64,000 nucleotides of DNA from Alloprevotella sp. Lineage in GTDB: Bacteria > Bacteroidota > Bacteroidia > Bacteroidales > Bacteroidaceae. Of the stretch, positions 2,169-55,478 are shown in pieces. The stretch spans positions 160,914 through 224,913 of the forward strand of contig JAZQSL010000002.1 in NCBI GenBank assembly GCA_045630125.1, written 5' to 3'. The position numbers were made by a program, and so were the translations under genes. Each line of letters starts with the position of its first letter. The stretch's first letter is position 1. The notes under the pieces were generated by a model. The model saw only the letters and a program-made list of their open reading frames with translations, ran no database searches and had not been told where the DNA came from.

Positions 2169-2256
2169 AAAAAAAACTTAACCTTTTTCAAAAAAACTAA
2201 GACCTTTTTGAAAAAACATTAGACCTTTTTTCAACGAGACGTCGCAAAGTTTTTTT
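2169..2256. repeat. 21-bp-module intergenic array, copy 1 (A-A-A-B)
   Basis: aaaaaaaacttaacctttttc / aaaaaaactaagacctttttg / aaaaaacattagaccttttttc / aacgagacgtcgcaaagtttt. Confidence 0.9.
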
Positions 2257-2319
2257 CACTCCTTTGGGGCTGTTTTTTACCTTTGCTTTTCGGCTGAAAA
2301 GGATACGGCGCGAGACCAC

Positions 2320-2361
2320 AAAAAAAAGATGCCATCGTCCACTTGCGGGCGGTGGTATCTT
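2320..2361 (-). terminator. Intrinsic terminator of the GH20 gene
   Basis: aagatgccatcgtcc...gggcggtggtatctt imperfect stem with an A-run on the left (U-tract on the minus strand). Confidence 0.65.
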
Positions 2362-2381
2362 ATTCTGTTTAGTAAGGGAGA

Positions 2382-5300
2382 TCAAGGATTGACCAGCACC
2401 TTTTTGCCATTAACAATGTATAGACCTTTGGTAGCCTTTCGCACTTTTCTACCCGAGAGATCGTAGATTTCTTCTGGTTCCCCGTTCACTACAACAGGCG
2501 CAATGCCCACGGGAGTAGTGGGTACTTCTACGAAATAAAAGTCGCTGGAGAATGTCGCATTGTAGTAACCTGCGATAGAAGATTGGTCAAAACCCGAAGC
2601 ATTCTTGATGACCAAAAAGTTGGAACCAGCGAATGGTGCCTGCAGGGTGACACAACCTTCATTCACAACCTTTTTGTCGCCAACCGTTGCATCGAGCGTC
2701 CAACCATAGGGAGCGCTGATCAATTCCTTCCAGGCGAAATATTTGCCAGTAGCCACGTTAACAAAATCGTACTTGGTCTTGCCATTGGCTACACACTTCC
2801 AATGATAATTATCCTGGTCAGCTTGACTTTTACCAAAGCCTACCTGACCATTGTTGTCGAAAAAATAGACGTCCCCCGCCATGTGTTTGTTGCAGAAGTA
2901 ATAGGTTTTGCCCGCTACGGGAAAGTGTTCCGAGGGCACTACGACTTCTTCCTCCACCTCAACGGCTTGGATGCTGTACTTACATCCTGTATCGCTCGTG
3001 TTATTACCACTTCCCCAGTTGTAAACCTTCCAGCCCAACTGTCCGTTGTTGGTTTGGTTAAACTGCACACTGCCGCTGGTGATGATGAAGTAACCCACCT
3101 CGTCTGCAGGTGAGAGTTTCCAGCCTGCCGAGGGTGATGTGGTCTGTGTCTTGAGGGCTGTATTGTTGGCGCTGTTTGGTGACACGTAGGTACCATCTGC
3201 TCTGTTCACGATGTCGAGTGCGCCATCCGCGCGTTTTACAAATTTCCACTCTGCAGCAGTGCTTGCCGAGGTCTGACCGACCATATCTGTATTTGCACCG
3301 CCTGATGTTGCGTAGCGGTTGTCACGCAGAGGCGTTGATAGGGTATAAAACACTTCTTCAGCACCTGTGCTCAATTGTGGTTGTTGCAGTGACGCTGTAG
3401 CAAGGAGGGCTTTGAAGGCAGCAAGAGCAGCGTCGAGGTCGGCCAACTGTTGTGCGCGCTTTTCGGCGCTGAGGCTTTCCTGCAAAGTACCTTGAATTTC
3501 TGCCAACTTAGCATCGAGTGCTTCAGCCGTAGTGGTGGGATAAAAGCCCGGCTGATTCTTTACATAACGATTGCGTTCGGCTTTGATTTCCGAGATGCGT
3601 GCCATCACGTTCTCTGCCGCTTCGTCCACACACTTATTGGGCGAGTAGATGAGGCCTTCCACTGCAGCCACGCCATCAAGGTCGGTGAAGACGCAAGTAA
3701 ACATCCACTTGTCCAGACGAGTCGCTGCGTTGACATAAGGCAGCTTCATAAATACGAGGTTCCAGCCTTCATTCAAATTCACAGCGATAGGTTGGCGCGA
3801 GGGGAAGTTTTCGTCCTTCAATGTCACTTCCTTGTTGCTGATGCTCACACCTGTGTTCTTGTATTTAGGAGCAGGGATTTCCTTGCCGTTGAGCCAAATC
3901 TTTGAGCCCATTACGTCCCACTTGCCTGCGGCGGGAGCAGGGTCTTGTTCAGAACGGCTGTAGTTCTGGAATTCGATCTGTGCACCCACGGTCTGAACTT
4001 TTGGCGAGTAGACATAGGTCCATGCGTACGCCGTCTGATTGTATGCCGGCGACTTGTAGTAGGCATTGATGATAGATTGACCCCAAGTGTGACGCAAGTA
4101 GATGCCTGCACCAGTAGCCATACCTGTGCTGTAAGTTTGTCCACCTTCGACGAATTCATCAGGCAACACGTCGTATGTACCTTCCTTCATCATTTTTTCA
4201 GGAGCAAAGGTCGCGTCGACATTACCACCATTAGAGAAGGCGTCAGTAATGCGCCAGCGCACGTTGGTTTGTTTCACGTAGGGGATAGGTTCACCCTTGA
4301 GCGAATGTGCCTTGTGGAAGAGGAAGCGGCTTTCCCAGTTTTGGAAATCCTCAAACTCCTCACCACTCGAAGGCAGCATCACACCACCGCCGAAGTTGGT
4401 ACCGCCATTCGTGCCGTTGTCGATGTAGCGCTTACCGCCACCTTGCCAAGCACGAGATGCTGAAGCGATGACGTTAGCATAGAAGTTGTTTTGCGAGATA
4501 ATATCTTCTTCTGTCTCGAGCTTACGGTCGTTCCACATACCCGAGATGGTACCCGATACAGTCGCATCACCCTTTTCCTTATAATATATTGTACTCTTGT
4601 AGATACCTACCAAGTCAGCAAATACATCAAAGTGGTTGGTATAATTGTAACGGCAGTCTACGTTGAACTTACCGCTCACCGCTGCACCCGAAGTACTCCA
4701 CAATTGGCAAAGTTCTGCATTGGTTTGGTTGCCTGACACGCCGCGAATAGGGTTCCACACCATTGTGCGCATACCCTTGGCTTGAATGTGACCAAGCATT
4801 TCGTTGACGTACGCAGCGGTAGTAGATTGTTCGTCCGCACCGATGTGGATGTAGGGCGCTTTGTCAAATACAGCCACAACTTCGTCCAATACTTTTTTCA
4901 GAATAACCTTTCCTTCCGCACTCTGCATATCTACGCCCATTGCACGGACAAAGGCTTCAGAGTGTCCTGGCATATCAATTTCGGGAATGATGTGCATACC
5001 GCGTTCCCAGGCATATTCTTGCAATTCCTTGCATTGTTCCTGTGTATAGTACTTGCCAGGGAAACGTGTCATAGTGCTGGCAGAAGTCAATTGGGGATAA
5101 GCCTTCACTTCGAAGCGCCAAGCCTGATTTTCGGTCATGTGCCAGTGAAAAGTATTCACCTTGAAGCGAGAGAGCAAGTCCACGTGCTTCTTCAACGTTT
5201 CGAATTCGATGAAAGAACGACCTACGTCGTGCATATAACCACGCAATTTGAATGCGGGCCAGTCTACGATTTCGCCGCACTCAAGGTTGACGCCTGTCGC

Positions 5301-5720
5301 ATCATAACCTTCTGCCAATTGGGTCAGGGTTTGTGCCGCACGGATCACACCGATTTCGCTCGCGGCGGTGATGTGTACACCCGAAGCAGTGACTTTGAGC
5401 ACGTAAGCTTCATCTGCGTAACCAGTCAATTCGTGGTTGTGACTGCCGGGAATGCTTTGTACCATTTCCACAACGACATCACCGCTTTTCGCAGCTGCGT
5501 CGAACTTCACATCGTTCACCCCAAATTCCTGGAAGAAACGAACCAACGCCGAGGACTGACTGACGCCAGCCACAGTCATACTGGAACCTGCAGCATATTT
5601 GAGCACGCCATCAGCCACCGTTACCTTCTGTGGGATAGGCAAGATGTGCTCGCGCTTTGCCTCTACCGCAGTAGACAGCAACAAGCATGCAGCCAAGAGA
5701 GAGAAAAACTTTCTTTTCAT
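2382..5720 (-). CDS. GH20 beta-N-acetylhexosaminidase with accessory beta-domains and T9SS-type C-terminal tail
   Basis: Signal peptide MKRKFFSLLAAC (likely start 5720); GH20 motifs RGYMHDVGRSF, PEIDMPGH and HIGADE; tail IYDLSGRKV...GLYIVNGKKVLV. Confidence 0.9.
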   Translation of the reverse strand: MKRKFFSLLAACLLLSTAVEAKREHILPIPQKVTVADGVLKYAAGSSMTVAGVSQSSALVRFFQEFGVNDVKFDAAAKSGDVVVEMVQSIPGSHNHELTGYADEAYVLKVTASGVHITAASEIGVIRAAQTLTQLAEGYDATGVNLECGEIVDWPAFKLRGYMHDVGRSFIEFETLKKHVDLLSRFKVNTFHWHMTENQAWRFEVKAYPQLTSASTMTRFPGKYYTQEQCKELQEYAWERGMHIIPEIDMPGHSEAFVRAMGVDMQSAEGKVILKKVLDEVVAVFDKAPYIHIGADEQSTTAAYVNEMLGHIQAKGMRTMVWNPIRGVSGNQTNAELCQLWSTSGAAVSGKFNVDCRYNYTNHFDVFADLVGIYKSTIYYKEKGDATVSGTISGMWNDRKLETEEDIISQNNFYANVIASASRAWQGGGKRYIDNGTNGGTNFGGGVMLPSSGEEFEDFQNWESRFLFHKAHSLKGEPIPYVKQTNVRWRITDAFSNGGNVDATFAPEKMMKEGTYDVLPDEFVEGGQTYSTGMATGAGIYLRHTWGQSIINAYYKSPAYNQTAYAWTYVYSPKVQTVGAQIEFQNYSRSEQDPAPAAGKWDVMGSKIWLNGKEIPAPKYKNTGVSISNKEVTLKDENFPSRQPIAVNLNEGWNLVFMKLPYVNAATRLDKWMFTCVFTDLDGVAAVEGLIYSPNKCVDEAAENVMARISEIKAERNRYVKNQPGFYPTTTAEALDAKLAEIQGTLQESLSAEKRAQQLADLDAALAAFKALLATASLQQPQLSTGAEEVFYTLSTPLRDNRYATSGGANTDMVGQTSASTAAEWKFVKRADGALDIVNRADGTYVSPNSANNTALKTQTTSPSAGWKLSPADEVGYFIITSGSVQFNQTNNGQLGWKVYNWGSGNNTSDTGCKYSIQAVEVEEEVVVPSEHFPVAGKTYYFCNKHMAGDVYFFDNNGQVGFGKSQADQDNYHWKCVANGKTKYDFVNVATGKYFAWKELISAPYGWTLDATVGDKKVVNEGCVTLQAPFAGSNFLVIKNASGFDQSSIAGYYNATFSSDFYFVEVPTTPVGIAPVVVNGEPEEIYDLSGRKVRKATKGLYIVNGKKVLVNP

Positions 5721-5793
5721 TTGAATAAAGTTTAATGTATTTAGGTTTGATTTTGTACAAAAATAATCAGGCACAGTCTGCCCATAATCAAGG

Positions 5794-5931
5794 CAAAGAT
5801 AAACAAAAAAAAGATAAAATCGTCTTGCCTCAGTAAAAAAATAAAGAAAGCCTTGATTTCGTAAAAATAGTGTAATATTTCCGCTATAAAAGCCCTAGTT
5901 TCTTTTGTTTAGAAAAAAAGTCGTACCTTTG
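5794..5931. promoter_or_regulatory. Divergent -7 boxes for GH20 (5794-5801, minus) and ychF (5924-5931, plus)
   Basis: TATCTTTG and TACCTTTG matches. Confidence 0.65.
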
Positions 5932-5963
5932 CACCTCAAATATAATAATAAGGAAAGAAAAGT

Positions 5964-7067
5964 ATGAGTTTACAATGTGGAATAGTCGGTTTGCCCAACG
6001 TAGGTAAGTCGACCCTGTTCAACTGCTTGAGCAACGCCAAAGCACAGTCTGCCAACTTCCCCTTCTGTACGATCGAACCCAACGTCGGTGTCATCACCGT
6101 GCCCGACGAACGTTTGTCGGAACTGGCGAAATTGATCAACCCCAACCGTATCGTGCCCACAACTGTCGAAATCGTGGACATCGCAGGTCTGGTGAAGGGT
6201 GCATCAAAGGGCGAAGGCTTGGGCAATCAATTCCTCGGCAACATCCGCGAGACCGACGCGATCATTCACGTATTGAGATGCTTTGACAATGGCAACGTCG
6301 TGCACGTAGACGGTAGCGTGGATCCTGTACGTGACAAGGAAATCATCGACACAGAATTGCAATTGAAGGACCTCGAGACTGTGGAAAATCGTATCACCCG
6401 CGTAGAAAAAATCGCAAAGGTGGGTGGCGACAAAAATGCTAAGATGGAATACGACATTCTCCTAGCTTTCCGCGAAGCATTGCTCCAAGGCAAGTCAGCA
6501 CGTACCGTACAATTTGAATCAAAGGAGGAACAACGTGCAGCACGCAACCTCTTCCTGCTCACATCCAAGCCCGTGCTCTACGTGTGCAACGTGGACGAAG
6601 CATCAGCCGCTACAGGCAACCATTATGTTGAGGCTGTGCGCGCAGCAGTTGAGCCCGAGGGTGCAGAAGTCCTCGTATTGGCTGCACAAACCGAAGCAGA
6701 TATCGCCGAACTCGAAACCTTCGAGGAACGCCAAATGTTCCTGGCTGACGTAGGTCTGGAGGAAAGTGGTTGCAACCGCTTGATCAAGGCGGCATACAAG
6801 ATGTTGAACCTCGAGACCTATATCACTGCGGGTGTACAGGAAGTTCGCGCGTGGACATACTGCCGCGGCTGGAAGGCGCCCCAATGTGCCGGTGTGATTC
6901 ACACAGACTTCGAGCGCGGCTTCATTCGTGCCGAAGTGATCAAGTATGAAGATTATATCCGTCTCGGTAGCGAAGCCGCTGTACGCGAAGCTGGTCTGCT
7001 CAAGGTGGAAGGCAAAGAATATGTAGTGCAAGACGGCGACATCATGCACTTCCGCTTTAATGTATAA
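5964..7067 (+). CDS. ychF: Redox-regulated ATPase YchF (Obg family)
   Basis: GIVGLPNVGKST, NFPFCTIEPN and DIAGLVKGASKGEGLGNQFL motifs; C-terminal TGS domain ending FRFNV. Confidence 0.98.
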   Translation: MSLQCGIVGLPNVGKSTLFNCLSNAKAQSANFPFCTIEPNVGVITVPDERLSELAKLINPNRIVPTTVEIVDIAGLVKGASKGEGLGNQFLGNIRETDAIIHVLRCFDNGNVVHVDGSVDPVRDKEIIDTELQLKDLETVENRITRVEKIAKVGGDKNAKMEYDILLAFREALLQGKSARTVQFESKEEQRAARNLFLLTSKPVLYVCNVDEASAATGNHYVEAVRAAVEPEGAEVLVLAAQTEADIAELETFEERQMFLADVGLEESGCNRLIKAAYKMLNLETYITAGVQEVRAWTYCRGWKAPQCAGVIHTDFERGFIRAEVIKYEDYIRLGSEAAVREAGLLKVEGKEYVVQDGDIMHFRFNV

Positions 7068-7148
7068 TAAATGAGATACGGTTTCTATACTCTCGGTTGT
7101 GGAGTATATAAGCCGTATTGTTTTTTTTAGACTATTAATATTTGGATT

Positions 7149-8012
7149 ATGGTGATTTGGGATCCCTCTGAGGTAGCTTTTTCTCTGGGCGCCTTTGACG
7201 TACGCTGGTACTCGCTGATGTGGTGTGCTGGCCTGGCCGCAGCGTATTATGTTGTCTATGCCTTGTACAAGCGTCAACAGATTCCACAGGAAAAGTTCGA
7301 ACCGCTATTTCTCTACTGCTTTCTGGGTATCTTGATTGGTGCACGTTTGGGCCACTGTCTGCTCTACGAGCCCGCCTATTTCTTGAGTCACCCCCTGGAG
7401 ATGATACTCCCCCTGCGCGAAGTCAATGGCGAATGGCAATTCACAGGCTATGCTGGACTCGCTTCGCATGGTGGTACGGCGGGTCTGATGCTCGCATTGT
7501 GGATGTATGTGCGCAAGGCCAAGTTGCCCCTGATGCACGTGCTCGACAATATAGCCATAGCTACGCCCATCACAGCCGGTTTCATCCGTATGGGCAACCT
7601 GATGAACTCTGAAATTGTCGGCAAATATACGGGCACAGATTGGGGCTTCGTCTTCGCACACAACTGGGACGCCGTCAATCGTTGCCACGAGACGATGCCA
7701 CGTCACCCGGCACAGCTCTACGAAGCCATCGCCTACTTCCTATTCTTTATCGTGGGCATCGTAATCTACCGCAAGTACAGCCAGCGCGTTGGTTCGGGTC
7801 TCTACTTCGGTTGGTGCTTGTTCAGCATCTTCACCTTCCGCTTGTTTGTTGAATATTTCAAGGAAGTGCAAGAGCCCTGGGAGCAAACCATGCGCGCCAT
7901 GATCGGCTTGGACCAAGGCCAGTTGCTCAGTCTGCCCTTTATCGCTATCGGTGGCTACTATTTGTGGAAAGGGATTAAGCACAAAGCCGCTACAAATATT
8001 AGCACAAAATAA
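7149..8012 (+). CDS. lgt: Prolipoprotein diacylglyceryl transferase
   Basis: GARLGHCL, GLASHGG, IRMGNLMNSEIVG and RHPAQLYEA motifs. Confidence 0.96.
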   Translation: MVIWDPSEVAFSLGAFDVRWYSLMWCAGLAAAYYVVYALYKRQQIPQEKFEPLFLYCFLGILIGARLGHCLLYEPAYFLSHPLEMILPLREVNGEWQFTGYAGLASHGGTAGLMLALWMYVRKAKLPLMHVLDNIAIATPITAGFIRMGNLMNSEIVGKYTGTDWGFVFAHNWDAVNRCHETMPRHPAQLYEAIAYFLFFIVGIVIYRKYSQRVGSGLYFGWCLFSIFTFRLFVEYFKEVQEPWEQTMRAMIGLDQGQLLSLPFIAIGGYYLWKGIKHKAATNISTK

Positions 8013-8031
8013 AGGGAGCAAAATCTCCTTT

Positions 8032-8117
8032 TTCACAAACCTAGACCTTTTTAAAATTTCGCGACGTCTCGTTAAAATTTCGCGACGTCTCGTTTAAAAA
8101 AGGTCTAGGTTTTTTTT
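8032..8117. repeat. 21-bp-module array, copy 2 (A-B-B-A)
   Basis: Perfect tandem aaaatttcgcgacgtctcgtt at 8053-8073 and 8074-8094, flanked by the inverted pair aaacctagaccttttt / aaaaaggtctaggttt. Confidence 0.92.
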
Positions 8118-8295
8118 GCGCCGCTTTTTAGCCTATTTTTCAGAGCTTATTACCATAGTTCGAAAATGAGATTTCTGCGCAAAAAGGTAACCTCTGGATT
8201 GCAAAATCATCAACAAAGTACTTTCTTTGTCTTAAAAAGAACTAAAAAAGTAGTAAAATAGACCTGTTTTTAACAATTATCTCACACAAAAGCAG

Positions 8296-8303
8296 TAACT
8301 TTG
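8296..8303 (+). promoter_or_regulatory. -7 box (TAACTTTG) for the TPR lipoprotein gene
   Basis: Exact consensus match. Confidence 0.65.
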
Positions 8304-8375
8304 CGGATAGTTTGGACCACTTCGGACAAATTGGATATTGAACAAAAAATATAAACCCTATAAAATATAAACATT

Positions 8376-10079
8376 ATGAAGCACAGTTCGAAACTGTATC
8401 TCAGTGTAGCACTCGCATCAGGCGTACTGCTTACATCATGTAACAAATTGGGCGAACTCAGCGCCGACAACTTCACTGTAACTCCTTCTCCACTTGAAGC
8501 AGTTGCTGAGAAAGTTCCCGTGACTATTAATGGTCGTTTCCCTGAAAAGTATATGAAGAAAAAGGCTGTAGTGACAGTGACTCCAGTGCTCCGCTATGAA
8601 GGCGGCGAAACTGCTGGTCAACCTGCAACCTTCCAAGGCGAAAAGATTCAAGGCAACGATCAGGAAATCTCGTACAAGGTAGGTGGCAACTATACCATGA
8701 AGAATACTTTCGACTATGTAGACGCGATGGCTACAAGCGAACTCTACCTCACATTTGATGCTAAGGTAGGCAAAAAGGTTGTAGAAGTTCCTGCAGTAAA
8801 AGTAGCAAACGGCGTAGTAGCTACTTCAACGTTGATTAAGAAAACTGCACAAGACGCAAACACAGTGGTAGGTAAAGATGCTTATCAATATGCTATTGCA
8901 CAAAGTCAACAAGCGCAAATCAAATACCTCATCAATCAAGCAAATGTACGTACAAGCGAATTGAAGAGTGTATCAGTGCAAGACCTCGTTAAAGTGCTTC
9001 GTGAAATCAAGAACGACCAAAAGAGCTTCCAAATTGATAATATCGAAGTTTCTGCTTACGCGTCTCCAGAAGGTTCACTCAAATTCAACACTCAATTGGC
9101 TGAAAAGCGTCAAAACTCTTCTGCAGAATTCCTCCAAGGCGAGTTGAAGAATATGGAGCTTGATGCAGATATCAATACTCAGTATACAGCTGAAGACTGG
9201 GACGGCTTCCAAGAACTCTTGATGGCTTCTAATCTCCAAGACAAGGAAGTAATCCTCCGCGTACTCTCAATGTACGAAGATCCCGAAGAACGCGAAGTGC
9301 AAATCCGTAACCTCTCTGCAGGTTTTGAAGAGTTGGCTACAGAAATCTTGCCCGAACTCCGCCGTGCTCGACTCACTGTAAACTACAACCTCATCGGCCG
9401 CAGCGACGACGAAATCCAAGCGCAATATAAGTCTAACGCAAAGGAACTCTCAGTAGAAGAATTGCTCTATGCTGCTACTCTGACTGAAGATGCTAACGAA
9501 AAGAAAGATATCTACGCTACCACAACTAACGTATATCCTGCAGACTATCGCGCATACAACAACCTTGCAACCCTTGCTTTAGCTGAAGGAAGCATTGAAA
9601 ACGCTAAGAACTATCTGAAGCAAGCTGCAAGCAAAAAGGATTGCGCAGAAGTTAACGCTAACCTCGCACTCGTTGCATTGGCAGAAGGTAATGTGAAAGA
9701 TGCCGAAACTTACGTATCACGCGCTACTTCTGCACCAAACTACAACGAATTGGTGGGTAACCTTAATGTAGCTAAGGGTAACTTCGCTGTAGCAGCGCAA
9801 AATCTTGCTGGTACTAAAACAAATAGTGCAGCTCTCGCAGAAATCTTGACAAAGAACTATACTGCAGCAGAAAAGACTTTGGCAAGTGTAAAGAATGCTA
9901 ATGCAATGACAGACTACTTGAAGGCTGTACTTGCTGCTCGCACAAGCAAAAATAATGAAGCCGTGAAGCACTTGGCAAACGCTATCAGCAAAGATGCGTC
10001 TCTCAAGGCTCATGCAGCAAAGAACCTTGACTTTGTGACACTCTTCAACGATTCAGCATTCTTGAACTTAGTGAAGTAA
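8376..10079 (+). CDS. Lipoprotein with OmpA-like central domain and C-terminal TPR repeats
   Basis: Lipobox LLTSC; IEVSAYASPEG (OmpA_C-like); RAYNNLA-type TPR repeats; strongly biased codon usage suggesting high expression. Confidence 0.8.
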   Translation: MKHSSKLYLSVALASGVLLTSCNKLGELSADNFTVTPSPLEAVAEKVPVTINGRFPEKYMKKKAVVTVTPVLRYEGGETAGQPATFQGEKIQGNDQEISYKVGGNYTMKNTFDYVDAMATSELYLTFDAKVGKKVVEVPAVKVANGVVATSTLIKKTAQDANTVVGKDAYQYAIAQSQQAQIKYLINQANVRTSELKSVSVQDLVKVLREIKNDQKSFQIDNIEVSAYASPEGSLKFNTQLAEKRQNSSAEFLQGELKNMELDADINTQYTAEDWDGFQELLMASNLQDKEVILRVLSMYEDPEEREVQIRNLSAGFEELATEILPELRRARLTVNYNLIGRSDDEIQAQYKSNAKELSVEELLYAATLTEDANEKKDIYATTTNVYPADYRAYNNLATLALAEGSIENAKNYLKQAASKKDCAEVNANLALVALAEGNVKDAETYVSRATSAPNYNELVGNLNVAKGNFAVAAQNLAGTKTNSAALAEILTKNYTAAEKTLASVKNANAMTDYLKAVLAARTSKNNEAVKHLANAISKDASLKAHAAKNLDFVTLFNDSAFLNLVK

Positions 10080-10113
10080 TCCAAAGACAGTTTGTTCTTA
10101 ATAATTAGAATAC

Positions 10114-10158
10114 AAAAAACATGAGGGAATGTCAATTCGATATTCCCTCATGTTTTTT
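10114..10158. terminator. Bidirectional intrinsic terminator
   Basis: aaaaaacatgagggaat...attccctcatgtttttt between convergent genes. Confidence 0.9.
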
Positions 10159-10191
10159 TATTTTAGCCTAATGGCGTGTATTAATGGTTGG

Positions 10192-11481
10192 CTATTTTAT
10201 CGCCGCGTCTAAGGCTTGTTGGATATCTGCCAGGATATCGCGAACATCCTCGATACCTACTGATAAGCGGATCAAATCTGGTGCTACGCCAGCTTCGCGC
10301 AATTGCTCGTCTGAAAGTTGTCGGTGAGTGTGGCTGGCGGGATGTAGAACGCATGAACGAGCGTCTGCTACGTGAGTTACGATGCATACCAATTTCAGTT
10401 CGTCCATAAACTTGATAGCGTCTTCGCGTGTACCCTTCAAACCGAAGGCGATGACGCCGCAACCACCATTTGGCAAATACTTTTGACCTAATTCATAATA
10501 CTTGTTGCTGGGTAGACCTGCATAGTTGACCCATGCCACGCGCTTGTCACTTTCGAGGAATTCTGCGACGGCTTGTGCATTTTCGCAGTGACGCTTCATA
10601 CGCAAGTGCAGGGTTTCGAGGCCCATATTCAGGAGAAATGCATTCTCGGGGCTTTGGATGGAACCCAAATCGCGCATGAGTTGTGCTGTGGCTTTAGTAA
10701 TATATGCCATCTTGCCGAAAGATTCGGCGTAGGTCAGACCGTGATAACTTTCGTCGGGAGTGCAGAGACCGGGGAACTTGTCTGCGTGTGCCATCCAGTC
10801 GAAGTTTCCGCTGTCTACTATACATCCGCCCACGGCTGTAGCATGTCCGTCCATATACTTAGTAGTGGAGTGCGTCACAATGTCTGCTCCCCATTCAAAG
10901 GGTCTACAGTTGATCGGCGTCGCAAAGGTGTTGTCGACAATCAGGGGCACGCCGTGCTTGTGAGCCAACTGTGCGAAGCGTTCGATATCAAATACATTTC
11001 CGCCGGGGTTACTGATCGTTTCGCCGAAGAAGCACTTTGTGTTTGGGCGGAAATGCTTTTCTATTTCTTCGTCAGACAAGTCGGGATCGACAAAGGTACA
11101 TTCGATGCCCATCTTCTTCATTGTTACAGCGAAGAGGTTGAAAGTGCCGCCGTAGATAGTGCTTGATGAGATGAAGTGGTCGCCTGCTTCACAGATATTA
11201 AAGATAGCGTAAAATGATGCAGCTTGTCCGCTCGACGTGAGCATAGCTGCTATACCGCCTTCGAGTTCTGCTATCTTTGATGCTACGGCATCGTTGGTGG
11301 GATTCTGCAATCGTGTATAAAAATAGCCCGAGTCTTCCAAATCGAAAAGACGGGCCATTTGTTCACTATTGTCGTATTTGAATGTTGTGCTTTGATAGAT
11401 AGGCAACACGCGGGGTTCTCCCTTCTTGGGAGTCCATCCTGCTTGCACGCAGAGTGTGCCTGGGTGTTGTTTAGTTTTCAT
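10192..11481 (-). CDS. metY: O-acetylhomoserine aminocarboxypropyltransferase / sulfhydrylase
   Basis: [34 protein letters not shown] (PLP lysine), [10 protein letters not shown] and IRLSVGIE motifs. Confidence 0.9.
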
Positions 11482-11528
11482 AGTGAAGTTTGTTTTGTGT
11501 GGTTATCGCAGTGTGAACATTGTGTTGT

Positions 11529-12125
11529 TTATGTTCTATTCTTTTTCCATGTACTATAGGCTGCTGCCGTAGTTCGTTTATTTTGCGAGGTGTGTGCTGG
11601 GCGATGCGCTTTAGTGAGCGGAGCTTTGATTTTTGTAGAACTCTTTACGCCTTCACGTAGTTTCCATTCGGATACTTTATAATAGTCTCCTGAAAGGGGG
11701 TTGATGATTTTTAGTTCTGGCACGACTACTTTCTTTTGTGCTGCTTTTTTCTTAGATACGAAACCGATTTTTGTTGCTTCGACGCTGGCTACTCCTGATG
11801 AGATTATACCCAGTTCCTTAGCTGCGGCATAAGATAAGTCGACGATTCTGCCTTGGCAGAAGGGGCCGCGGTCATTTACTTTTACGATAACCTCTTTGCC
11901 ATTCTTTACATTGCGTACTTTGAGCAAAGTGCCAAAGGGGAGTGTACGGTGAGCGCAAGTCATACTATCGCGGTGGTAGATAGAACCATCGCTGGTGCGT
12001 CTGCCGTGAAATTTGTTGGCATAGTAAGATGCCTTTCCAGTTTGAATCTCTTGTCCGAATGCAATTGTGCTTGTCATGATGAATGACAGCGCGAGCAGTA
12101 GAAATTTGATTTTTCTGTTCATCAT
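11529..12125 (-). CDS. rlpA: Septal ring lytic transglycosylase RlpA family protein
   Basis: GKASYY, CAHRTLPFGT, VNDRGPF and IVDLSYAAA motifs. Confidence 0.92.
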   Translation of the reverse strand: MMNRKIKFLLLALSFIMTSTIAFGQEIQTGKASYYANKFHGRRTSDGSIYHRDSMTCAHRTLPFGTLLKVRNVKNGKEVIVKVNDRGPFCQGRIVDLSYAAAKELGIISSGVASVEATKIGFVSKKKAAQKKVVVPELKIINPLSGDYYKVSEWKLREGVKSSTKIKAPLTKAHRPAHTSQNKRTTAAAYSTWKKNRT

Positions 12126-12252
12126 TTGTTTTTTTTATAGGGTCAAGGCATCGACGAGAGAGACCAAAAAGGCTTTTCTCCGAGCCATCTCCTCCTTATA
12201 ATAATATATGGTGTCGGAGTGAAATGAGTCGACGCTTGTCCTAAATTCGCTG

Positions 12253-12260
12253 CAAAGTTA
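12253..12260 (-). promoter_or_regulatory. -7 box for rlpA-metY
   Basis: TAACTTTG on the minus strand. Confidence 0.6.
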
Positions 12261-12683
12261 CGATTTTTTTGTTACATGTCAAAGCTCTTTGCTCTAATTA
12301 TCACCACTTTAACATTATTATAGATTTTTTGAGGATAGGAAACGTGACGTTTTTTCTTGCCATTTTGTGTTGTGATAAAGGGGCTGTGACAAATTCGCTT
12401 GTGTGGCGTGGAGTTGGTATAAATGGGGCGTGTCGCTTGTGTGGCATGAGGTGGTGATTGCGTGTGGATGGCTCTGTGTGGCTTGGATGAGCGGTGAGTC
12501 GGGCAGATGGAATTTTAATATTTAAGTTTGTCGAAAATAGCGTTTGTTTTTTCGTGGAAACAAGGTGTGATCTGCTTTGTCAGGGGCGAGGTTTCGTGAT
12601 AAGATTTTGTCGTATTTTTTGAAATAGACTTTGCTAAAAAAATCCCATTTCATCGAAAAAAATCACTATGTTTTGCCCCCTTG

Positions 12684-12769
12684 AAAAAAAGTCTAACCTT
12701 TTTTAAAAAAGGTCTTGGTTTTTTTGAAAAAGGTTAAGGTTTTTTTTAACGAGACGTTGCAAAATTTTT
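12684..12769. repeat. 21-bp-module array, copy 3 (A-A-A-B)
   Basis: aaaaaaagtctaacctttttt / aaaaaaggtcttggttttttt / gaaaaaggttaaggtttttttt / aacgagacgttgcaaaattttt. Confidence 0.9.
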
Positions 12770-12880
12770 CGGAGATAAAAAACGCTATTCCGTTAGTCTC
12801 TGAAAGTGCAATTTTGAGAGAATCAAATTGGTGTGATACAATCCCTTTGTTTTCCTTTGGAAAAGTTCGAAAAAAATTAT

Positions 12881-12888
12881 TAACTTTG
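12881..12888 (+). promoter_or_regulatory. -7 box for the GNAT-parE operon
   Basis: TAACTTTG 43 bp before the ATG. Confidence 0.7.
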
Positions 12889-12931
12889 CGCAGTTTGTAT
12901 ATTAGCATCACCCTGAAAAACTGAAGATAAA

Positions 12932-14065
12932 ATGTCTGTGGTAATTAAAAAAGTCTCTACGAAGTCTGATTTGAAAAAATTCATTCGTTTCAACTACGAA
13001 TTTTATAAAGACAACCCCTACGCCGTGCCCGATTTGTATATGGATATGGTTGATACTTTTTCGCGTGAGAAAAATGCTGCTTTCGAATTTTGCGAAGCAG
13101 ATTATTTCTTGGCTTATCGTGATGGGAAAATCGTGGGACGTGTGGCAGCCATTATCAACCATCGTGCCAATGAGACTTGGCAACGTCAAGTAGTGCGCTT
13201 CGGCTGGATCGACTTTGTCGACGATGCCGAGGTCAGCGATGCTTTGATTGATACAGTGAAAGCTTGGGGGCGTGAACGTGGTATGAAGGAAATCGAGGGA
13301 CCATTAGGCTTCACAGACATGGATGCTGAGGGTATGCTCATCGAGGGCTTTGATCAACTCTCGACCATGGCGACTATTTACAACTATCCCTACTATCCCG
13401 TGCACATGGAACGTATGGGCTTTGAAAAATCCGCCGACTGGGTGGAAATGAAAATCTATATCCCCGACGCAATTCCTGAGAAACATAAGCGCATATCAGA
13501 TATCATACAGCGCAAATACAACTTGCGTGTGCGTAAGTTGACTAATAAAAAAGATGTGATCAAGAGTGGAGTCGCGCATGAAATATTCCGTCTGATTAAC
13601 GATGCGTATGCGCCGCTCTTTGGCTTCTCGCGAATGACCGAGGCGCAGATCGATCAGTATGTCAACGTATATATTCCCGTGCTGGATCTACGCATGGTGA
13701 CACTTGTTGAGACCGAAGAGGGCGAAATCGTAGCCGTGGGTATCTCGATGCCTTCGCTTTCTGAAGCTTTGCAAAAGGCAAAAGGAAAATTCTTCCCCTT
13801 CGGATGGTATCATCTCTTGAAGGCTTTGAAGTGGAATAGACCCAAAGTGCTCGACCTCCTGCTCGTGGCAGTGCGTCCCGACTATCAAAGCAAGGGTGTG
13901 AATGCTTTGCTCTTCACAGATTTGATCCCTATCTACCAGGAAATGGGCTTCGAATACGCAGAGTCTAATCCAGAATTGGAAGACAATGGTCGTGTGCAAA
14001 ATCAATGGCAATATTTCAAGACAGAACAACACAAGCGCCGCCGTTGCTTTAAGCAAAATTTATAA
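12932..14065 (+). CDS. GNAT-fold N-acetyltransferase (YghO-like, conserved in Bacteroidales)
   Basis: VGRVAAIINHRAN, YNYPYY, AVRPDYQSKGVNA and ESNPELEDN motifs. Confidence 0.8.
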   Translation: MSVVIKKVSTKSDLKKFIRFNYEFYKDNPYAVPDLYMDMVDTFSREKNAAFEFCEADYFLAYRDGKIVGRVAAIINHRANETWQRQVVRFGWIDFVDDAEVSDALIDTVKAWGRERGMKEIEGPLGFTDMDAEGMLIEGFDQLSTMATIYNYPYYPVHMERMGFEKSADWVEMKIYIPDAIPEKHKRISDIIQRKYNLRVRKLTNKKDVIKSGVAHEIFRLINDAYAPLFGFSRMTEAQIDQYVNVYIPVLDLRMVTLVETEEGEIVAVGISMPSLSEALQKAKGKFFPFGWYHLLKALKWNRPKVLDLLLVAVRPDYQSKGVNALLFTDLIPIYQEMGFEYAESNPELEDNGRVQNQWQYFKTEQHKRRRCFKQNL

Positions 14066-14095
14066 TCCCGAAACGAATAAGACACAATCATACGC

Positions 14096-16192
14096 ATGGC
14101 AAAAAAAGATGCACTCAGTTCGAACGCTTCATCAATACTTGAAAGCGCCGAAGCAGATGTAGAATTGCAGGATGTAAGTGGCACAGCTACCTATACCGAG
14201 GATAATATCCGCACGCTCGAGGGTGTGGAGCACATCCGTAGACGTCCGGGTATGTATATCGGACGCTTGGGCGATGGCTCGCACGCCGAAGATGGTATCT
14301 ATGTATTGCTGAAGGAAACAATCGACAACAGTATCGACGAATTCAACGAAGGATTTGGTAAGAAGATTGAAGTAAACATCATAGACGACAGAAACGCAGA
14401 AATACGCGACTACGGCCGTGGTATTCCCTTGGGCAAATTGGTCGATGCCGTTTCAAAATTGAATACAGGTGGTAAGTATGACACAGCAGTATTCACCGCT
14501 TCGGTCGGTATGAACGGTGTGGGTCTGAAAGCCGTCAATGCGTTGAGCCGAAAGTTTGTGGCGCGCAGTTATCGCGACGGCTTGATGCGCGAAGCCATCT
14601 TTGATTGCGGAAAACTCGTTTCGGAAACTGAACAACCCACCGAAGAAGAAAACGGAACTTACATCTATTTCGAACCAGACAAAGACCTTTTCCTCGACTT
14701 CAAGTTCCAGAGCGAATTTGTCAACAATATGTTGCGCAACTATACGTATCTGAACACAGGATTGGCTATCTTCTACAACGGACGTCGTATCATCAGCCGA
14801 AACGGTCTTGAGGATTTGCTCAACGATTCTATGACGGCGCCAGGACTTTACCCTATCGTGCATCTCAAAGGCGACGGCATAGATATCGCCTTTACCCACA
14901 CTTCACAATACGGCGAGGAATACTATTCTTTCGTTAACGGCCAGCACACCACCCAAGGCGGTACGCACCAAAGTGCTTTCAAGGAGCACATTGCCCGTAC
15001 TATCAAAGAATATTTTGGTAAGAATTTTGATGTACAAGACGTTCGCAATGGTCTTGTAGCAGCTATTGCAATTCGTGTGATAGAGCCGCTGTTCGAGAGC
15101 CAAACGAAAATCAAACTGGGGTCTTTGGTGATGGCTCCAGACAAAGATATGCACGGCAATCCCTTCCCACTTTCGGGCGTCTCGGTCAATAAGTTTGTGG
15201 GCGATTTCATTAAGAGTAACGTCGACAACTACCTGCACATGAATCTGGACGTTGCGGAAATTTTGCAACAAAAGATTCAGGAAAGCGAAAAGGAAAGAAA
15301 AGCTATCGCAGGTGTGACAAAGTTGGCACGCGAACGTGCTAAGAAAGCAAATCTCCATAATAGAAAATTGTGCGACTGCCGAGTTCACCTAAACGATGCG
15401 CCGCCTAAGACAAAGAAGGGTCAGGAAGAAGACAACGACCTTAGATTTGATTCGTCAATCTTCATTACCGAGGGGGACTCTGCTTCGGGTTCTATCACCA
15501 AGAGTCGTGATGTGAACACACAAGCCGTATTCTCCTTGCGCGGAAAGCCTTTGAATTGTTTCGGATTGACCAAGAAAGTGGTTTACGAGAACGAGGAGTT
15601 CAACCTGCTCCAAGCTGCGCTGAATATAGAAGACGGTCTTGATGGATTGCGCTACAACAAAGTCATCGTAGCAACCGATGCCGATGTCGACGGTATGCAC
15701 ATTCGTTTGTTGATGATTACGTTTTTTTTGCAATTCTTCCCGGATTTGATCAAGAAAGGCCACGTCTATATCCTGCAAACTCCCTTGTTCCGCGTACGAA
15801 ATAAGAAGAAAAAGGAACGCAAGCAGGCTTCGGCGGCAACATCCGACACTGCAAGTGCAGCAGGCGAGGCTATTTTGAAAAAGACCCGCACCAGCGACCG
15901 CTCAGAGTTTGAAACCATCTACTGTTATAGCGAAGAAGAACGCATTGCAGCGATAGAAAAATTGCAACCTAATCCAGAAATCACACGATTCAAAGGTTTG
16001 GGTGAAATCTCTCCTGACGAATTCCGCCACTTCATTGGTCCTGAAATACGATTGGAGCAAGTGACGCTACACAAGAGCGACCAGGTGAAAGAACTCCTGG
16101 AATACTACATGGGCAAGAATACCATGGAGCGCCAAAACTTCATCATCGACAATCTCGTCGTTGAAGAAGACCCCGTCGACGAGGAAGAATAA
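14096..16192 (+). CDS. parE: DNA topoisomerase IV subunit B
   Basis: [50 protein letters not shown] and RFKGLGE motifs; adjacent to coaD. Confidence 0.93.
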
Positions 16193-16332
16193 ATTCCTAC
16201 CGTCGCACATTTTCTCCGTGGTCTTGGTTTCTCAGCAGAGAGTCGGATGTATGCGCAAGATGATGCCGAAAAAGTGCGATGAATAGGCGCAAAAATGTAA
16301 TAATTGAATTGAAACGCAAAAAAAAAGTCTTG

Positions 16333-16794: not shown

Positions 16795-16861
16795 GTAATG
16801 TTGCAGGAAAAAGGTGTAGTGTCGTAATGCCTATGCCTACCTATATATAATATATGTCTGT

Positions 16862-19752: not shown

Positions 19753-19838
19753 AAAAAAAAGTCTTACCTTTTTCAAAAAAGGTCAAGGTTTTTTTAAAAA
19801 AGGTAAGGGTTTTTTTGAAAAAGGTTAAGGTTTTTTTT
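19753..19838. repeat. 21-bp-module array, copy 4 (A-A-A-A)
   Basis: Module cores gtcttacc, ggtcaagg, ggtaaggg and ggttaagg, each between an A-run and a T-run, at a 21-22 bp period. Confidence 0.9.
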
Positions 19839-21075: not shown

Positions 21076-21078
21076 TTT

Positions 21079-23353: not shown

Positions 23354-23893
23354 ATGATTCAGCACCCATTATCTCTGTTTTCCTACTGCCCTCGTTGCGG
23401 CGCGTCTGCGTTTGCGGAACACGATGCGCGCAGTAAGCGATGCCAGGCTTGTGGCTTTACCTATTATCACAATGCTTCGGCGGCCACGGTGGCGGTGATT
23501 GTCAACGCTAATAGGGAGTTGTTGGTTGTACGTAGGGCATACGATCCAGCAAAGGGGACCTTGGATCTGCCAGGTGGCTTTGTGGATCCCGGCGAAGGCG
23601 TGGATGATGGTTGTCGCAGGGAGGTGTTGGAAGAAACTGGCTTGCAGGTCAAACGCATGGAGTTTCTCTTCTCACTGCCCAACGTCTACGAATATTCAGG
23701 TTTCTCTGTGCATACAGCGGACTGCTTCTTCTTGTGTAAAATCGACGATGAAACCGCACTTTTTGCTGCCGACGATGCAGCAGAAGTACTCTGGATTCCC
23801 GTGGATGAATTGCGCTCGGAAGAGTTCGGCTTGCATTCTGTGCGTCGAGGTGTGGAGCGCTTGAAAGAAGAATATTTTGACAAACAGAAATAG
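23354..23893 (+). CDS. NUDIX hydrolase with N-terminal zinc ribbon (NudC-like)
   Basis: CPRCG...CQACG zinc ribbon; Nudix box PGGFVDPGEGVDDGCRREVLEETG. Confidence 0.9.
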   Translation: MIQHPLSLFSYCPRCGASAFAEHDARSKRCQACGFTYYHNASAATVAVIVNANRELLVVRRAYDPAKGTLDLPGGFVDPGEGVDDGCRREVLEETGLQVKRMEFLFSLPNVYEYSGFSVHTADCFFLCKIDDETALFAADDAAEVLWIPVDELRSEEFGLHSVRRGVERLKEEYFDKQK

Positions 23894-24019
23894 ATGATCA
23901 GCACTCGCCATAAGTGCCCGTCAAAAGAAAGATAAACCCTGTGCAAACAGAGATCCTATTTCAGTAAAGGAAATCTCTCTCCTCCAGGCATAGGACAAAC
24001 ATTATAAAAAAGAAATCAA

Positions 24020-24865
24020 ATGTCGAACAATCGGCCTCACTTATATCTTGTAAAAGTCGGTGGTAAAATCGTAGAAGATCCTGCTGCGCTGAAACTATTG
24101 TTAACCGCATTTTCTGCTTTGCCAGGCTATAAAGTCCTGGTGCACGGCGGCGGAAGGGCGGCAACAGACGTGGCAGCTCAACTCGGTATCGAAACAAAGA
24201 TGGTCGGAGGCCGTCGCATCACAGATGCTGATATGTTGCGCGTGGTAACTATGGTTTACGCTGGGTTGGTTAATAAAAATGTCGTGGCGCAACTCCAAGG
24301 GATGGGTATCTCGGCTATCGGTATGACAGGAGCAGACGCAGATGTAATCAGGGCAAACCGCCGACCAGTCGGAGAAGTAGATTATGGTTTTGTGGGAGAT
24401 GTTTCGCGTGTCGATGCGTCGCGTCTTTCGCTTTTGCTCAAAGGTGGTATTACTCCGGTCTTGGCACCATTGACTCACGACGGCGCGGGACAAATTCTAA
24501 ATACTAATGCCGACACCATTGCTGGCGAAGTGGCTGCAGCGCTCGCCGAGGAATTCGAAGTAGAACTGCTCTATGTCTTCGAATTTCCTGGTGTGATGCA
24601 AAATCCCGATGACTTGACTTCGGTAATACCACATATCAATCGCGAAAAGTTTACTCAATTGGCCGCAGATGGAGTTGTCGCAGGCGGAATGTTACCCAAA
24701 CTTGAAAATTGCTTAAAGGCCGTAGAACGTGGCGTACACCAAGTGCGCATTACACGCCTTGAAGAAAGCACAGCAACAGGGGAAACTGGCATAAATGCAG
24801 ACACGGCAGAAACTCCGCAATGTGTCGGTCGCTTTGCATCAGGTACATTGATTACACTTTCTTGA
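24020..24865 (+). CDS. argB: Acetylglutamate kinase
   Basis: VKVGG, VHGGG, GRRITD, LNTNAD and GGMLPK motifs. Confidence 0.92.
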   Translation: MSNNRPHLYLVKVGGKIVEDPAALKLLLTAFSALPGYKVLVHGGGRAATDVAAQLGIETKMVGGRRITDADMLRVVTMVYAGLVNKNVVAQLQGMGISAIGMTGADADVIRANRRPVGEVDYGFVGDVSRVDASRLSLLLKGGITPVLAPLTHDGAGQILNTNADTIAGEVAAALAEEFEVELLYVFEFPGVMQNPDDLTSVIPHINREKFTQLAADGVVAGGMLPKLENCLKAVERGVHQVRITRLEESTATGETGINADTAETPQCVGRFASGTLITLS

Positions 24866-29802: not shown

Positions 29803-29888
29803 AAAAATTTCGCGCCGTCTCGTTAAAAAAAAGTCAAATGTTTTTTAAAAAAGGTCTTGGTTTTTTTGTAAAAGGTTAGACTTTTTTT
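29803..29888. repeat. 21-bp-module array, copy 5 (B-A-A-A; reverse of copies 1, 3 and 8)
   Basis: aaaaatttcgcgccgtctcgtt followed by A modules with cores gtcaaatg, ggtcttgg and ggttagac. Confidence 0.9.
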
Positions 29889-33471: not shown

Positions 33472-33603
33472 CTCGTAAGTAATTGTGATGCCCAAAAAAC
33501 CTGAAATGAATATTGAAATCATTGATAAAAGTAGGTTGATTGCGTAAATCTTATACCGAACTCACGTATTTCTAAAATGAAAAATCCAGAGCAGAAAAAG
33601 GAG

Positions 33604-33706
33604 AAAAAAGTAAGACCTTGTGAAAATTTCGCGACGTCTTGTGCAAAAAACATTAGACCTTTTTTCAACAAGGTCTTGACTTTTTCAAACAAGGTCTAAT
33701 GTTGTC
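33604..33706. repeat. 21-bp-module array, copy 6 (A-B-A-A-A)
   Basis: Cores taagacc / aaaatttcgcgacgtcttgtg / cattagacc / ggtcttgac / ggtctaatg. Confidence 0.88.
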
Positions 33707-33772
33707 GCTACGACTCAAATTATCCGACACACACCGTTTGTCAAAATTTTTCGTTTTTTTTAAAACAGAAAA

Positions 33773-47253: not shown

Positions 47254-47336
47254 AAAAAAGTCAAAGCCTTGTTTGAAAAAACCGTTCTGGAATTTGAAAA
47301 AGGTCTAAGTTTTTTTGAAAAAGGTCTAATGTTGTG
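47254..47336. repeat. 21-bp-module array, copy 7 (A-degenerate B-A-A)
   Basis: Cores gtcaaagcc / aaaaaaccgttctggaatttg / ggtctaag / ggtctaatg at about a 21-bp period. Confidence 0.8.
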
Positions 47337-47371
47337 AAAATGGTCCTTTGCTTAGTGCCTTTTGAAAGATA

Positions 47372-51759: not shown

Positions 51760-51760
51760 A

Positions 51761-52825: not shown

Positions 52826-52831
52826 GGCTGA

Positions 52832-54277: not shown

Positions 54278-54352
54278 GTAATTCGTTTTTGCTATTTTGA
54301 CGAGCGCGACTCGTCGTTTTTATGATTGATAGTGTAAATTCGGTATTGGGTG

Positions 54353-55216
54353 TTAGAAATAGAGCATCGCTGCTACCTGGCGTGCCACGTAGCGGCCGTT
54401 TCTGCGCGCTCCGGCTTCGTTGGTGTGTGTGCCGTCATAGGTGAATTTGTTCTTCACCTTCTCGCGTGGGCGATACAGACTGCTACCGCCGTCCATACGC
54501 ACAAGGCCTACGCTCAACCATTTTGCACATTCTGCGATAGTGTCAGCTGTGCGCAGGATTTCTGTAGTCGGAACAGCTGCGGCCTGCATGGGGGTGAGTA
54601 GTATGATTTGAGCATCGGGAAAGGCTTGTATCAGCAATTCGCAGTTGTATCGGATAGATTCGGTCAGCGAAGTGATGGTGTTGACCTTACGGTCGGTGAT
54701 GAATTTGTCTTGTATGCTGAATGCTTGTGCCGCGCTTTTGTCAAAGACTCCCGGACGGCGCTTCTGAAACCACGCATCGTTTGTGCCAGCGGCGATGATG
54801 ATCAGGTCGGGGGTAACTTGTTCGCCCGCCTTGACCGCAGCTTTCAGTCGTTCCACTTGATTGTAGATCACATTGTCATCGCCCAGGATGCCGATGTTTT
54901 CCTCGCGATTCAGCTTGGTGCGTATGGTGTTGGTCCAGGTGGCTCCGCTGCGAGCATAACTGCGACATGATGCAGGCTGCAAGGCTTCTGCAAACCATTT
55001 GTTCCACCCGAGTGGCTGGTCGCACTGGTCTCCACCGATGGCGGTCTCGGAATCGCCTAGCAGGACTACGTGTAGATTTGAGTAGTCGTTTATTGCTGGT
55101 AGGCTGTCTACAACATAGCAGTCGGAGTAAGCCATAGGCGACGGCGTGAGTAAAGCCTTTGCCATCTGTGGCAGATGCAATGCGAATAATGTCAATAGAA
55201 TGTGCAAATAGTGCAT
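54353..55216 (-). CDS. SGNH/GDSL hydrolase
   Basis: LLGDS, AGTND and DGTH motifs; likely start is the ATG at 55216; -7 box TACCTTTG at 55323-55330. Confidence 0.85.
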   Translation of the reverse strand: MHYLHILLTLFALHLPQMAKALLTPSPMAYSDCYVVDSLPAINDYSNLHVVLLGDSETAIGGDQCDQPLGWNKWFAEALQPASCRSYARSGATWTNTIRTKLNREENIGILGDDNVIYNQVERLKAAVKAGEQVTPDLIIIAAGTNDAWFQKRRPGVFDKSAAQAFSIQDKFITDRKVNTITSLTESIRYNCELLIQAFPDAQIILLTPMQAAAVPTTEILRTADTIAECAKWLSVGLVRMDGGSSLYRPREKVKNKFTYDGTHTNEAGARRNGRYVARQVAAMLYF

Positions 55217-55393
55217 TTGTGGTTCGGTTTTGTCAACAAAACAATGGGGAAACACGGTTTGGTGTCCCCTTTTACTCTACTCGATGACAGTGTCAATAGT
55301 ATGGTGCTCAATTTAAGCGCTGCAAAGGTACAAAAAAACAGTGATATGTCACTGCTGTCTCTTGCTCTTTGTTTGGTTGTCGTAGGGGTAAAA

Positions 55394-55478
55394 AAATAAA
55401 GTCTTGGTTTTTTGAAAATATCCAAGACTTTTTTTGAAAAAGGTTAGACTTTTTTTTAACGAGCCGTTGCAAAGTTTT
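55394..55478. repeat. 21-bp-module array, copy 8 (A-A-A-B)
   Basis: Cores gtcttgg, ccaagac and ggttagac, then aacgagccgttgcaaagtttt. Confidence 0.9.

Follow-up and report, generated by a model that had tools for sequence, protein, structure and literature searches.

We analyzed a 64,000-nucleotide stretch of DNA from Alloprevotella sp. (GenBank assembly GCA_045630125.1, contig JAZQSL010000002.1, positions 160,914 to 224,913 of the forward strand; hereafter, the window), which holds eight intergenic arrays of 21-bp modules. Arrays of the same family are dispersed over the genome, and they are spaced far more evenly than expected by chance, with a lower exclusion distance between neighbors. As far as searched, the family is undescribed: no description of these arrays was found in the literature searched, which was largely open-access. 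We lean towards the explanation that the arrays form a selected binding lattice for HU-family dimers, i.e., docking platforms placed once every 6-10 kb.

The family search relied on matrices trained on the window modules and scanned over the source assembly (G000; 2.33 Mb, 53 contigs, 87% complete); G002 and G063 are its two sister genomes. We detected 217 arrays with at least three modules (164 with four, 33 with three, 17 with five and three with six), and adding twelve two-module remnants gave a working set of 229. As a control, three local dinucleotide-block shuffles of 793 kb were scanned; each contained zero arrays of at least two modules, compared to 83 arrays of at least three modules in the real sequence. 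The steps between modules (n = 641) were 21 bp in 582 cases, 22 bp in 37 and 20 bp in 22. A preliminary description of the window, made from the sequence alone, had proposed an intergenic family of mostly four modules with a period of 21-22 bp; the modal number, the nearly exclusive intergenic placement and the phasing were all borne out genome-wide, whereas the period is 21 bp. The two module types, A and B, are the ends of one continuum. Both have AA at positions 2-3, Y9, W11, R13 and TT at positions 19-20; therefore, an array carries a dyad every 10.5 bp. Modules occur in mixed orientation in most arrays, and the central GACGTC ascribed to module B is present in only four of the seven clear B modules of the window. 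Gaps between genes were classified with a simple gene caller (1523 genes, 73% coding), hence some genes are missed; by this measure, 198 of the 217 arrays fall within a classified gap, 17 stand at the edge of a contig, and two overlap a gene call. Every large contig but one carries arrays, at a density of one per 8.4 kb in GC-rich contigs and one per 12.4 kb in AT-rich contigs.

The spacing was compared to random placement into intergenic gaps. For the 182 inter-array gaps of the 217-array set, the smallest is 3766 bp and the coefficient of variation (CV) is 0.52, compared to 0.90 (lowest 0.72) in 2000 random placements; there are no gaps below 3 kb, versus 42 expected and a null minimum of 24. 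When only the 485 long intergenic gaps were allowed as sites for the 229-array set, the result was the same: a smallest distance of 3625 bp and no distance below 3 kb, whereas the null gave 27 on average and never fewer than 14. The same rule is obeyed by a second 21-bp family, which is unrelated in sequence and has five to six modules per array. All six of its loci (G000 contig positions C5:85524, C8:50301, C17:4705, C20:133569, C20:233642 and C52:9445) are separated by 4.6 kb or more from any array of the first family, and several are mid-way in the longest first-family gaps; only 30% of 128 empty long gaps are that distant, which corresponds to a p of ~7e-4 for six of six. In G067, 28 detector hits in 200 kb represent ~26 true arrays, with a smallest gap of 3.7 kb. 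The closed genome G047, searched with two exact motifs (100 of the 107 matches of the first motif are included), has 104 clusters, with 3 to 19 in every 200-kb bin (the origin position is not assigned); therefore, the dispersal of arrays is not an artefact of binning.

Comparison with G063, which is ~90.6% identical to G000 over 307 kb aligned and differs from it by 53 synteny blocks within the 369 kb examined, bears on how the spacing is maintained. The arrays of G063 have a CV of 0.34, with one gap below 3 kb and none above 12 kb. When the G000 arrays were transplanted onto the G063 gene order, the CV was 0.53 (lowest 0.43 in 1000 draws), with 3.3 gaps below 3 kb and four above 12 kb; the reverse transplant gave 0.51, versus 0.37 observed. 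Array gain and loss appear to repair spacing after rearrangement. Where the two genomes are collinear, most arrays are common to both (28 of 31 in G063, 29 of 30 in G000), while the layout is identical at only four of 28 shared loci, with 21-bp indels and module swaps, and the share of B modules is 40% in G063 versus 25% in G000; thus, position outlasts sequence. The module number differs at 18 of these 28 loci; four is the mode, not a fixed number. It should be noted that the gene-order shuffling between G063 (contigs C36, C4 and C7) and G000 (C2, C46 and others) is very dense, and misassembly is possible.

A candidate reader was found in the winged-helix-turn-helix (wHTH) subclade of the HU-HIG proteins (PF18291). 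Among the best 30 HU-wHTH loci of the genus, taken one per genome, 24 have an array with a 21- or 22-bp period within 450 bp upstream of the gene and two have one downstream. In a control family, the upstream count was four of 30 at a laxer threshold, three of these from the G000 clade (p = 3e-7, with related genomes not being independent). At loci L165-L194, L381 and L399-L424, an upstream array accompanies nearly every HU-wHTH gene, and most of the arrays have their own core. In Pfam, the protein matches HU-HIG and, below threshold, a helix-turn-helix; among solved structures, its front matches HU/IHF and its back, weakly, winged-helix Z-DNA domains. In one clade (G160, G023 and G161), a genome-wide 22-bp family itself stands ~130-160 bp upstream of one HU-wHTH gene, with 16 of 17 bases in agreement, and, of the upstream arrays compared, this putative operator shares first place in similarity to the G000 family (14 of 17 bases). 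In G058, G104 and G078, the upstream array matches the dispersed family weakly, at 14-15 of 17. Judged by gene context, the architecture is tied to HU-wHTH proteins, and the upstream arrays are candidate operators for this protein clade; as such, the 24 of 30 would be the first candidate DNA sites for a clade left without targets in the available text of PMC5499826. As a separate observation, G160 (L382-L398) has ~15 near-identical, scattered 134-aa HU-HIG genes, suggesting a mobile unit.

Two further candidates were rejected. In G000, G002 and G063, an array stands 110 bp upstream of the gene for an unannotated 189-aa protein (G000:C2:150995-151564, L195), but the orthologs in G067, G072 and most other genomes lack one (four of 30 have it); PF14848 had no match in the clade. 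The 189-aa protein has no Pfam family and only hypothetical clusters in Atlas. It is present in 66 of 148 genus genomes, diverges fast (69% identity to G063, 98% to G002) and has, by eye, a helix-turn-helix-like N-terminus.

In the mechanism that we propose, each module would bind one HU-family dimer, as the dyads and the 9-bp core between the A-tracts of module A suggest, and three to five such dimers, spaced by two helical turns, would sit on one face of the helix and bend or wrap ~85 bp. In IHF, the distance between the two proline kinks is likewise 9 bp (PMC9519438), a geometric fit only. Such platforms would fix a loop or supercoil boundary, which may be most useful at converging transcription. 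Arrays nearer than ~3.5 kb to one another would be redundant or harmful and would be lost, and long empty stretches would favor a new array; we infer this selection from the exclusion distance, the avoidance between two families and the transplant result. Modules would be homogenized genome-wide via gene conversion and slippage. The family would have begun as an HU-wHTH operator array and spread partly by small carrier elements.

A number of observations weigh against this reading. The transplant compares two living genomes, with no ancestor, and G063-only segments lengthen the transplanted gaps. Exclusion is weaker in G047, with a smallest gap of 1.4 kb, seven gaps below 3 kb and patchy density. 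In 60 kb of G013, no array was detected, so that not every species of the genus has the lattice. The conservation of array positions from G000 to G067 or G072 (odds ratio (OR) 3.8 and 6.8) is not significant under control for gap size (p = 0.33 and 0.054). The arrays of G067 and G072 fold better than module-permuted ones (-31.3 versus -25.8 kcal/mol). As to the reader, the HU-wHTH upstream arrays of G047, G067, G072 and G052 match the dispersed family at only 10-12 of 17 bases, and HU-HIG proteins were judged unlikely to be sequence-specific in the available text of PMC5499826. Searches of G000 (87% complete), G002 (74%) and G063 (63%) turned up no full-length HU-wHTH gene, only a 142-aa HU-HIG protein that lacks the winged helix; a 31-sequence HU-wHTH profile run over six frames of G000 gave the same result. 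G043 (96% complete) likewise has arrays and no full-length HU-wHTH match, and no HU-wHTH gene was found at 28 array-bearing loci out of 130 metagenome and viral loci. The HU and IHF-like proteins of G000 and G067 are closely similar by eye, whereas the cores differ; therefore, such proteins could read only shape. The reader in the G000 clade may be an HU-wHTH protein whose gene is missing from the three assemblies, all of them incomplete, or the ordinary HU/IHF proteins, reading shape. The preliminary description had suggested binding sites for a chromosome-organizing protein; the even spacing and the link to HU-wHTH genes support this idea, whereas the protein was not found in G000.

A rival explanation is a selfish, non-autonomous mobile family, similar to MITEs (miniature inverted-repeat transposable elements) or REPINs, in which the modules are transposase-binding or enhancer sites and the spacing results not from host selection but from target immunity, as in Mu, Tn3 and Tn7. 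We consider this unlikely. Approximately 60 of the 229 arrays do lie in three kinds of small carrier, and arrays have been gained or lost between species that are ~90% alike. First, ~12 arrays are in or beside 270-340-bp elements, several copies of which are 93-98% identical and whose terminal repeat closely resembles the MITE239/ISPg3 one (Table 2 of PMC4596501); there are 26 copies of this terminal inverted repeat (TIR) genome-wide, three complete pairs enclose a first-family array, and two second-family arrays are inside the same ends. Second, 24 arrays are in a 332-bp element (353 bp with one more module) bounded by 19-bp direct repeats that hold a TTGACA-like hexamer on the reverse strand; its length is better conserved than its sequence (e.g., G000:C2:110551-110922, C2:134045-134395 and about 24 more; L097-L103 in G094). 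The G094 counterpart is 413 bp long and has its own array and a perfect DnaA-box-like word. Third, in 22 arrays a sigma-A-type promoter, followed within ~10 bp by a covarying hairpin of 12-14 bp and a T run, is aimed at the array from 64-65 or 86 bp, with a predicted transcript of 45-50 nt (flank family 2: G000:C46:230552, C20:21450, C28:66147 and 19 others; also L097 in G094 and L112 in G096). An array within 400 bp was also found at 13 of 106 contig ends, versus ~4 expected. On the other hand, the flanks of 144 of the 229 arrays are unlike those of any other array, flanking repeats of 5-8 bp are at chance level in 134 arrays, and exclusion holds between families of unrelated sequence. Immunity alone would leave the close pairs made by rearrangement. 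Three pairs of filled and empty sites were found, in which patches of ~150-230 bp at a gene 3' end differ, with no source in the DNA examined and with neither terminal repeats nor target duplications seen. The family PF13612, which we assume to represent the carrier transposase, is unmatched in G000 and G063 and gave one fragment in G002; it should be noted that metagenome-assembled genomes (MAGs) lose insertion sequence (IS) elements. We conclude that carriers help to spread the arrays but do not define them. Of the mobile or recombining element suggested in the preliminary description, the carriers remain, but target duplications are not in excess, terminal repeats are lacking at the three filled and empty pairs, and breakpoints are not enriched at arrays under control for gap size.

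Other mobile origins were tried and rejected. G000 has one Y1 transposase (RAYT-type, 151 aa; C2:53950-56100); it belongs to another repeat, since the gene is within tandem clusters of a different palindrome family (18 matches on three contigs), and the nearest arrays are ~5-6 kb away. Tags of repetitive extragenic palindromic (REP) elements were counted in the 8 bp on each side of the 229 arrays (458 flanks): GTAG was found zero times, CTAC nine, CGTC two and GACG seven; module B itself holds an internal CGTC. An iteron origin was rejected as well: the Rep_3 family PF01051 is present in six of 148 genomes and in none of G000, G002, G063, G067 and G072, and there was no plasmid match. As to a tyrosine recombinase specific to the clade, four proteins of G000 match PF00589 (two XerC/D-like, two weaker), and the sets of G067 and G072 are similar.

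An improbable alternative is a regulatory role: the arrays would be bound by a global transcription factor, or would form hairpins that terminate transcription or stabilize mRNA where operons end, and their spacing would only mirror operon length. Convergent gaps are richer in arrays in every size class (57/140 versus 149/861 for gaps of at least 100 bp; OR 3.3), and 77% of the arrays in codirectional gaps are closer to the upstream stop than to the downstream start. Covariation in the arms of G067 and G072 arrays and the 22 flanks with a promoter and a terminator-like hairpin at a fixed distance point in the same direction. Conversely, the spacing is non-random even when only long gaps are allowed, and 30 arrays are in divergent gaps. 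In G000, 134 arrays fold no better than module-permuted arrays (-18.9 versus -20.4 kcal/mol), which favors a double-stranded DNA form. Phasing to outward-facing promoters was not detected (Rayleigh z at most 3.3, four periods tried). At the Rfam gathering score, no family matched in the window, and none in L097 or L112; tRNA was the only family to pass at five other loci, where one G067-type array also had miRNA matches below threshold.

We regard as quite improbable a self-pruning process in which recombination between neighboring arrays would delete or invert the intervening DNA and merge the arrays, so that close pairs are lost and modules and gene blocks are shuffled. The many synteny blocks, the indels and module swaps at shared loci and the presence of both module orientations would be consistent with it. 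Breakpoints first seemed to fall at arrays, suggesting a recombination hot spot; this effect disappeared under control for gap size (22/49 versus 32/79 for gaps of at least 200 bp; OR 1.2, p = 0.71), and of 97 block ends, only 15 coincide with an array in G063 as well as in G000. The layout bbbbAA occurs at two junctions of G063, suggestive of carrier inversion with duplication, but the flanks of these junctions are unrelated. Local copying was not supported within contigs: neighboring arrays are no more alike than distant arrays of the same contig (p = 0.79). Self-pruning also explains neither the absence of long gaps nor the mutual avoidance of unrelated families. Finally, strong DNA gyrase or topoisomerase IV sites, known from BIME-2 and Mu and in need of no dedicated reader, are very improbable: the preference for convergent gaps, where positive supercoils build up, the weak A/T-rich peaks at ~10-11-bp steps that run on into the array flanks, and a spacing near the size of supercoil domains would fit, but the species-specific cores and the HU-wHTH link are left unexplained.

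Compared to known systems, the family fits neither REP elements and bacterial interspersed mosaic elements (BIMEs) nor MITEs or iterons; it has a BIME-like build and a HIP1-like proposed role. BIMEs bind IHF and gyrase. Rep_3 plasmid-origin iterons have a 21-22-bp period, and the arrays resemble them in having three to five units at two-turn spacing and, in the G094 carrier, the DnaA-box-like word; they differ by quasi-palindromic modules in mixed orientation, ~220 chromosomal loci and no Rep3_N match in G000. With matS/MatP, ram/RacA, NBS/Noc (Noc-binding sites), SBS/SlmA (SlmA-binding sites) and parS/ParB, the arrays have in common dispersed palindromic sites thought to be read by a chromosome-shaping dimer. 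Those sites are single, number tens per genome and are biased to the origin or terminus, whereas the arrays are phased, multi-site and in the hundreds, on nearly all large contigs. As in the REP/BIME/REPIN group (PMC3733652), there are hundreds of short palindromic intergenic units, built as mosaics of modules that face either way, preferring the 3' ends of genes and restricted in sequence to certain species. Unlike that group, the arrays have no GTAG tag, CGTC is rare beside them, and the RAYT gene has its own repeat; they also have a strict two-turn period, an exclusion distance of several kb and weak hairpins in G000. BrickBuilt and MITE239/ISPg3 of Porphyromonas gingivalis are also Bacteroidales repeats, intergenic, with approximately two-turn tandem units (23 bp) in IS-type ends; BrickBuilt has 19 copies of head-to-tail direct repeats with a leader and a tail (PMC4596501). 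The arrays differ from BrickBuilt in their number, two module types, mixed orientation, the majority without a carrier, and even spacing. HIP1 of cyanobacteria is likewise a selection-kept periodic repeat with a proposed nucleoid role and a reader not known; it is an 8-bp word, also found within genes, with periods of 10-90 kb (PMC5861425), whereas each array here is phased, intergenic and 84 bp long, keeps a hard lower distance from its neighbors and changes fast in sequence. Compared to the HU-wHTH upstream arrays, the G000 family has the same architecture, but its cognate gene was not found in G000; DNA sites are not described in the accessible part of PMC5499826.

The A/B sequence itself is narrowly distributed: it was found in three of 148 genus genomes (G000, G002 and G063), with one stray match. 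A 31-base two-module pattern searched in one genome per GTDB species gave 26 stretches in two records (Bacteroidaceae and Prevotellaceae MAGs). Of the words in the first 10 kb, 28-40% are present in a set of public sequencing runs, most of them labeled gut or bovine gut metagenomes, and four metagenome runs cover the stretch with related sequence, although for window positions 1001-21000 the inter-array joints are indistinguishable from partial mapping of other arrays. The same architecture with other cores was found in G067, G072, G005, G094, G016, G047, G043, G052 and G046, and arrays with a 22-bp period in G160 and G108; a scan of periods from 17 to 25 bp peaked at 21 in G067 and G000. By reading of five-kb pnp loci, nine of 27 have arrays (G067, G072, G058, G104, G078, G119, G096, G091 and G101). 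In 16 genomes of other families (at most 20 kb each, five under 8 kb), no 21/22-bp array was detected; the detector is weak, recovering 12 of 29 arrays in G000 when set to a similar threshold, hence this is no evidence of absence. Viral contigs gave nine matches to a loose A pattern, none of them an array, zero matches to the B pattern, and no relative of the L381 protein, the HU-wHTH protein of the G160 clade. One array of G000 (C39:9632), upstream of a small unannotated gene, has a G067-like core and possibly came from another species.

All eight arrays reported in the preliminary description were found in the window, and their refined spans give the same layouts (lower-case letters are modules in reverse orientation). 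Seven have four modules: aaaB at 2169..2252; abbA at 8033..8116, with six modules at the same locus of G063 (two extra B, a 42-bp indel); AAAB at 12684..12767; AAaA at 19754..19837, flanked by queG and ruvB; bAAa at 29805..29888, common to G000 and G063; aBAA at 47254..47337, in a convergent gap, with a weak 12-bit variant as the second module; and AaaB at 55394..55477. The five-module array abaAA (33603..33707), in the convergent gap after pnp, is absent from the pnp loci of G063 and G002, each of which has one array. A solo TIR copy of the MITE239/ISPg3-like carrier family (33551..33567, minus strand; compared to Table 2 of PMC4596501) is 36 bp to the left of this array, and the 19-bp direct-repeat motif, which elsewhere in G000 forms the borders of the 332-bp carrier element, has a solo copy at 33737..33755 (plus strand). 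A ninth array of at least two modules was not found within the window. The 130-bp gap between a Nudix gene and argB (23890..24020) is an empty site and belongs to one of the three filled and empty pairs; in G063, the entire gap is swapped for a longer patch that carries an array of five modules, and neither a terminal repeat nor a target duplication was seen there. The arrays sit between family-matched genes or long open reading frames (ORFs), and the window genes are housekeeping genes of Bacteroidales type; the only overlap of the 19754 array is with a mechanically called ORF of 130 aa on the minus strand. The window also contains a gene for a helix-turn-helix and WCX (WYL-type) regulator at 60570-61475 and a tRNA gene at 63211-63284.

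In its broadest form, which is tentative and may well not hold, our proposal is that Prevotella-like Bacteroidales have a DNA-encoded lattice of domain boundaries every 6-10 kb, which would arise repeatedly when carriers copy the operator array of a fast-evolving HU-winged-helix gene, with spacing repaired after rearrangements and letters replaced when the reader changes. Topological domains of ~10 kb are usually put down to moving, sequence-independent barriers. If the proposal is true, the lattice would be a bacterial counterpart of insulator or nucleosome-positioning arrays. Taxonomic markers are another possible use of the species-specific cores. In this group of gut Bacteroidales, fixed marks exist at the ~10-kb scale, and their lower distance, which can be measured, is valid across unrelated repeat families and seems to be restored after rearrangement; such marks make the domain question testable, by deleting, adding or moving a mark.

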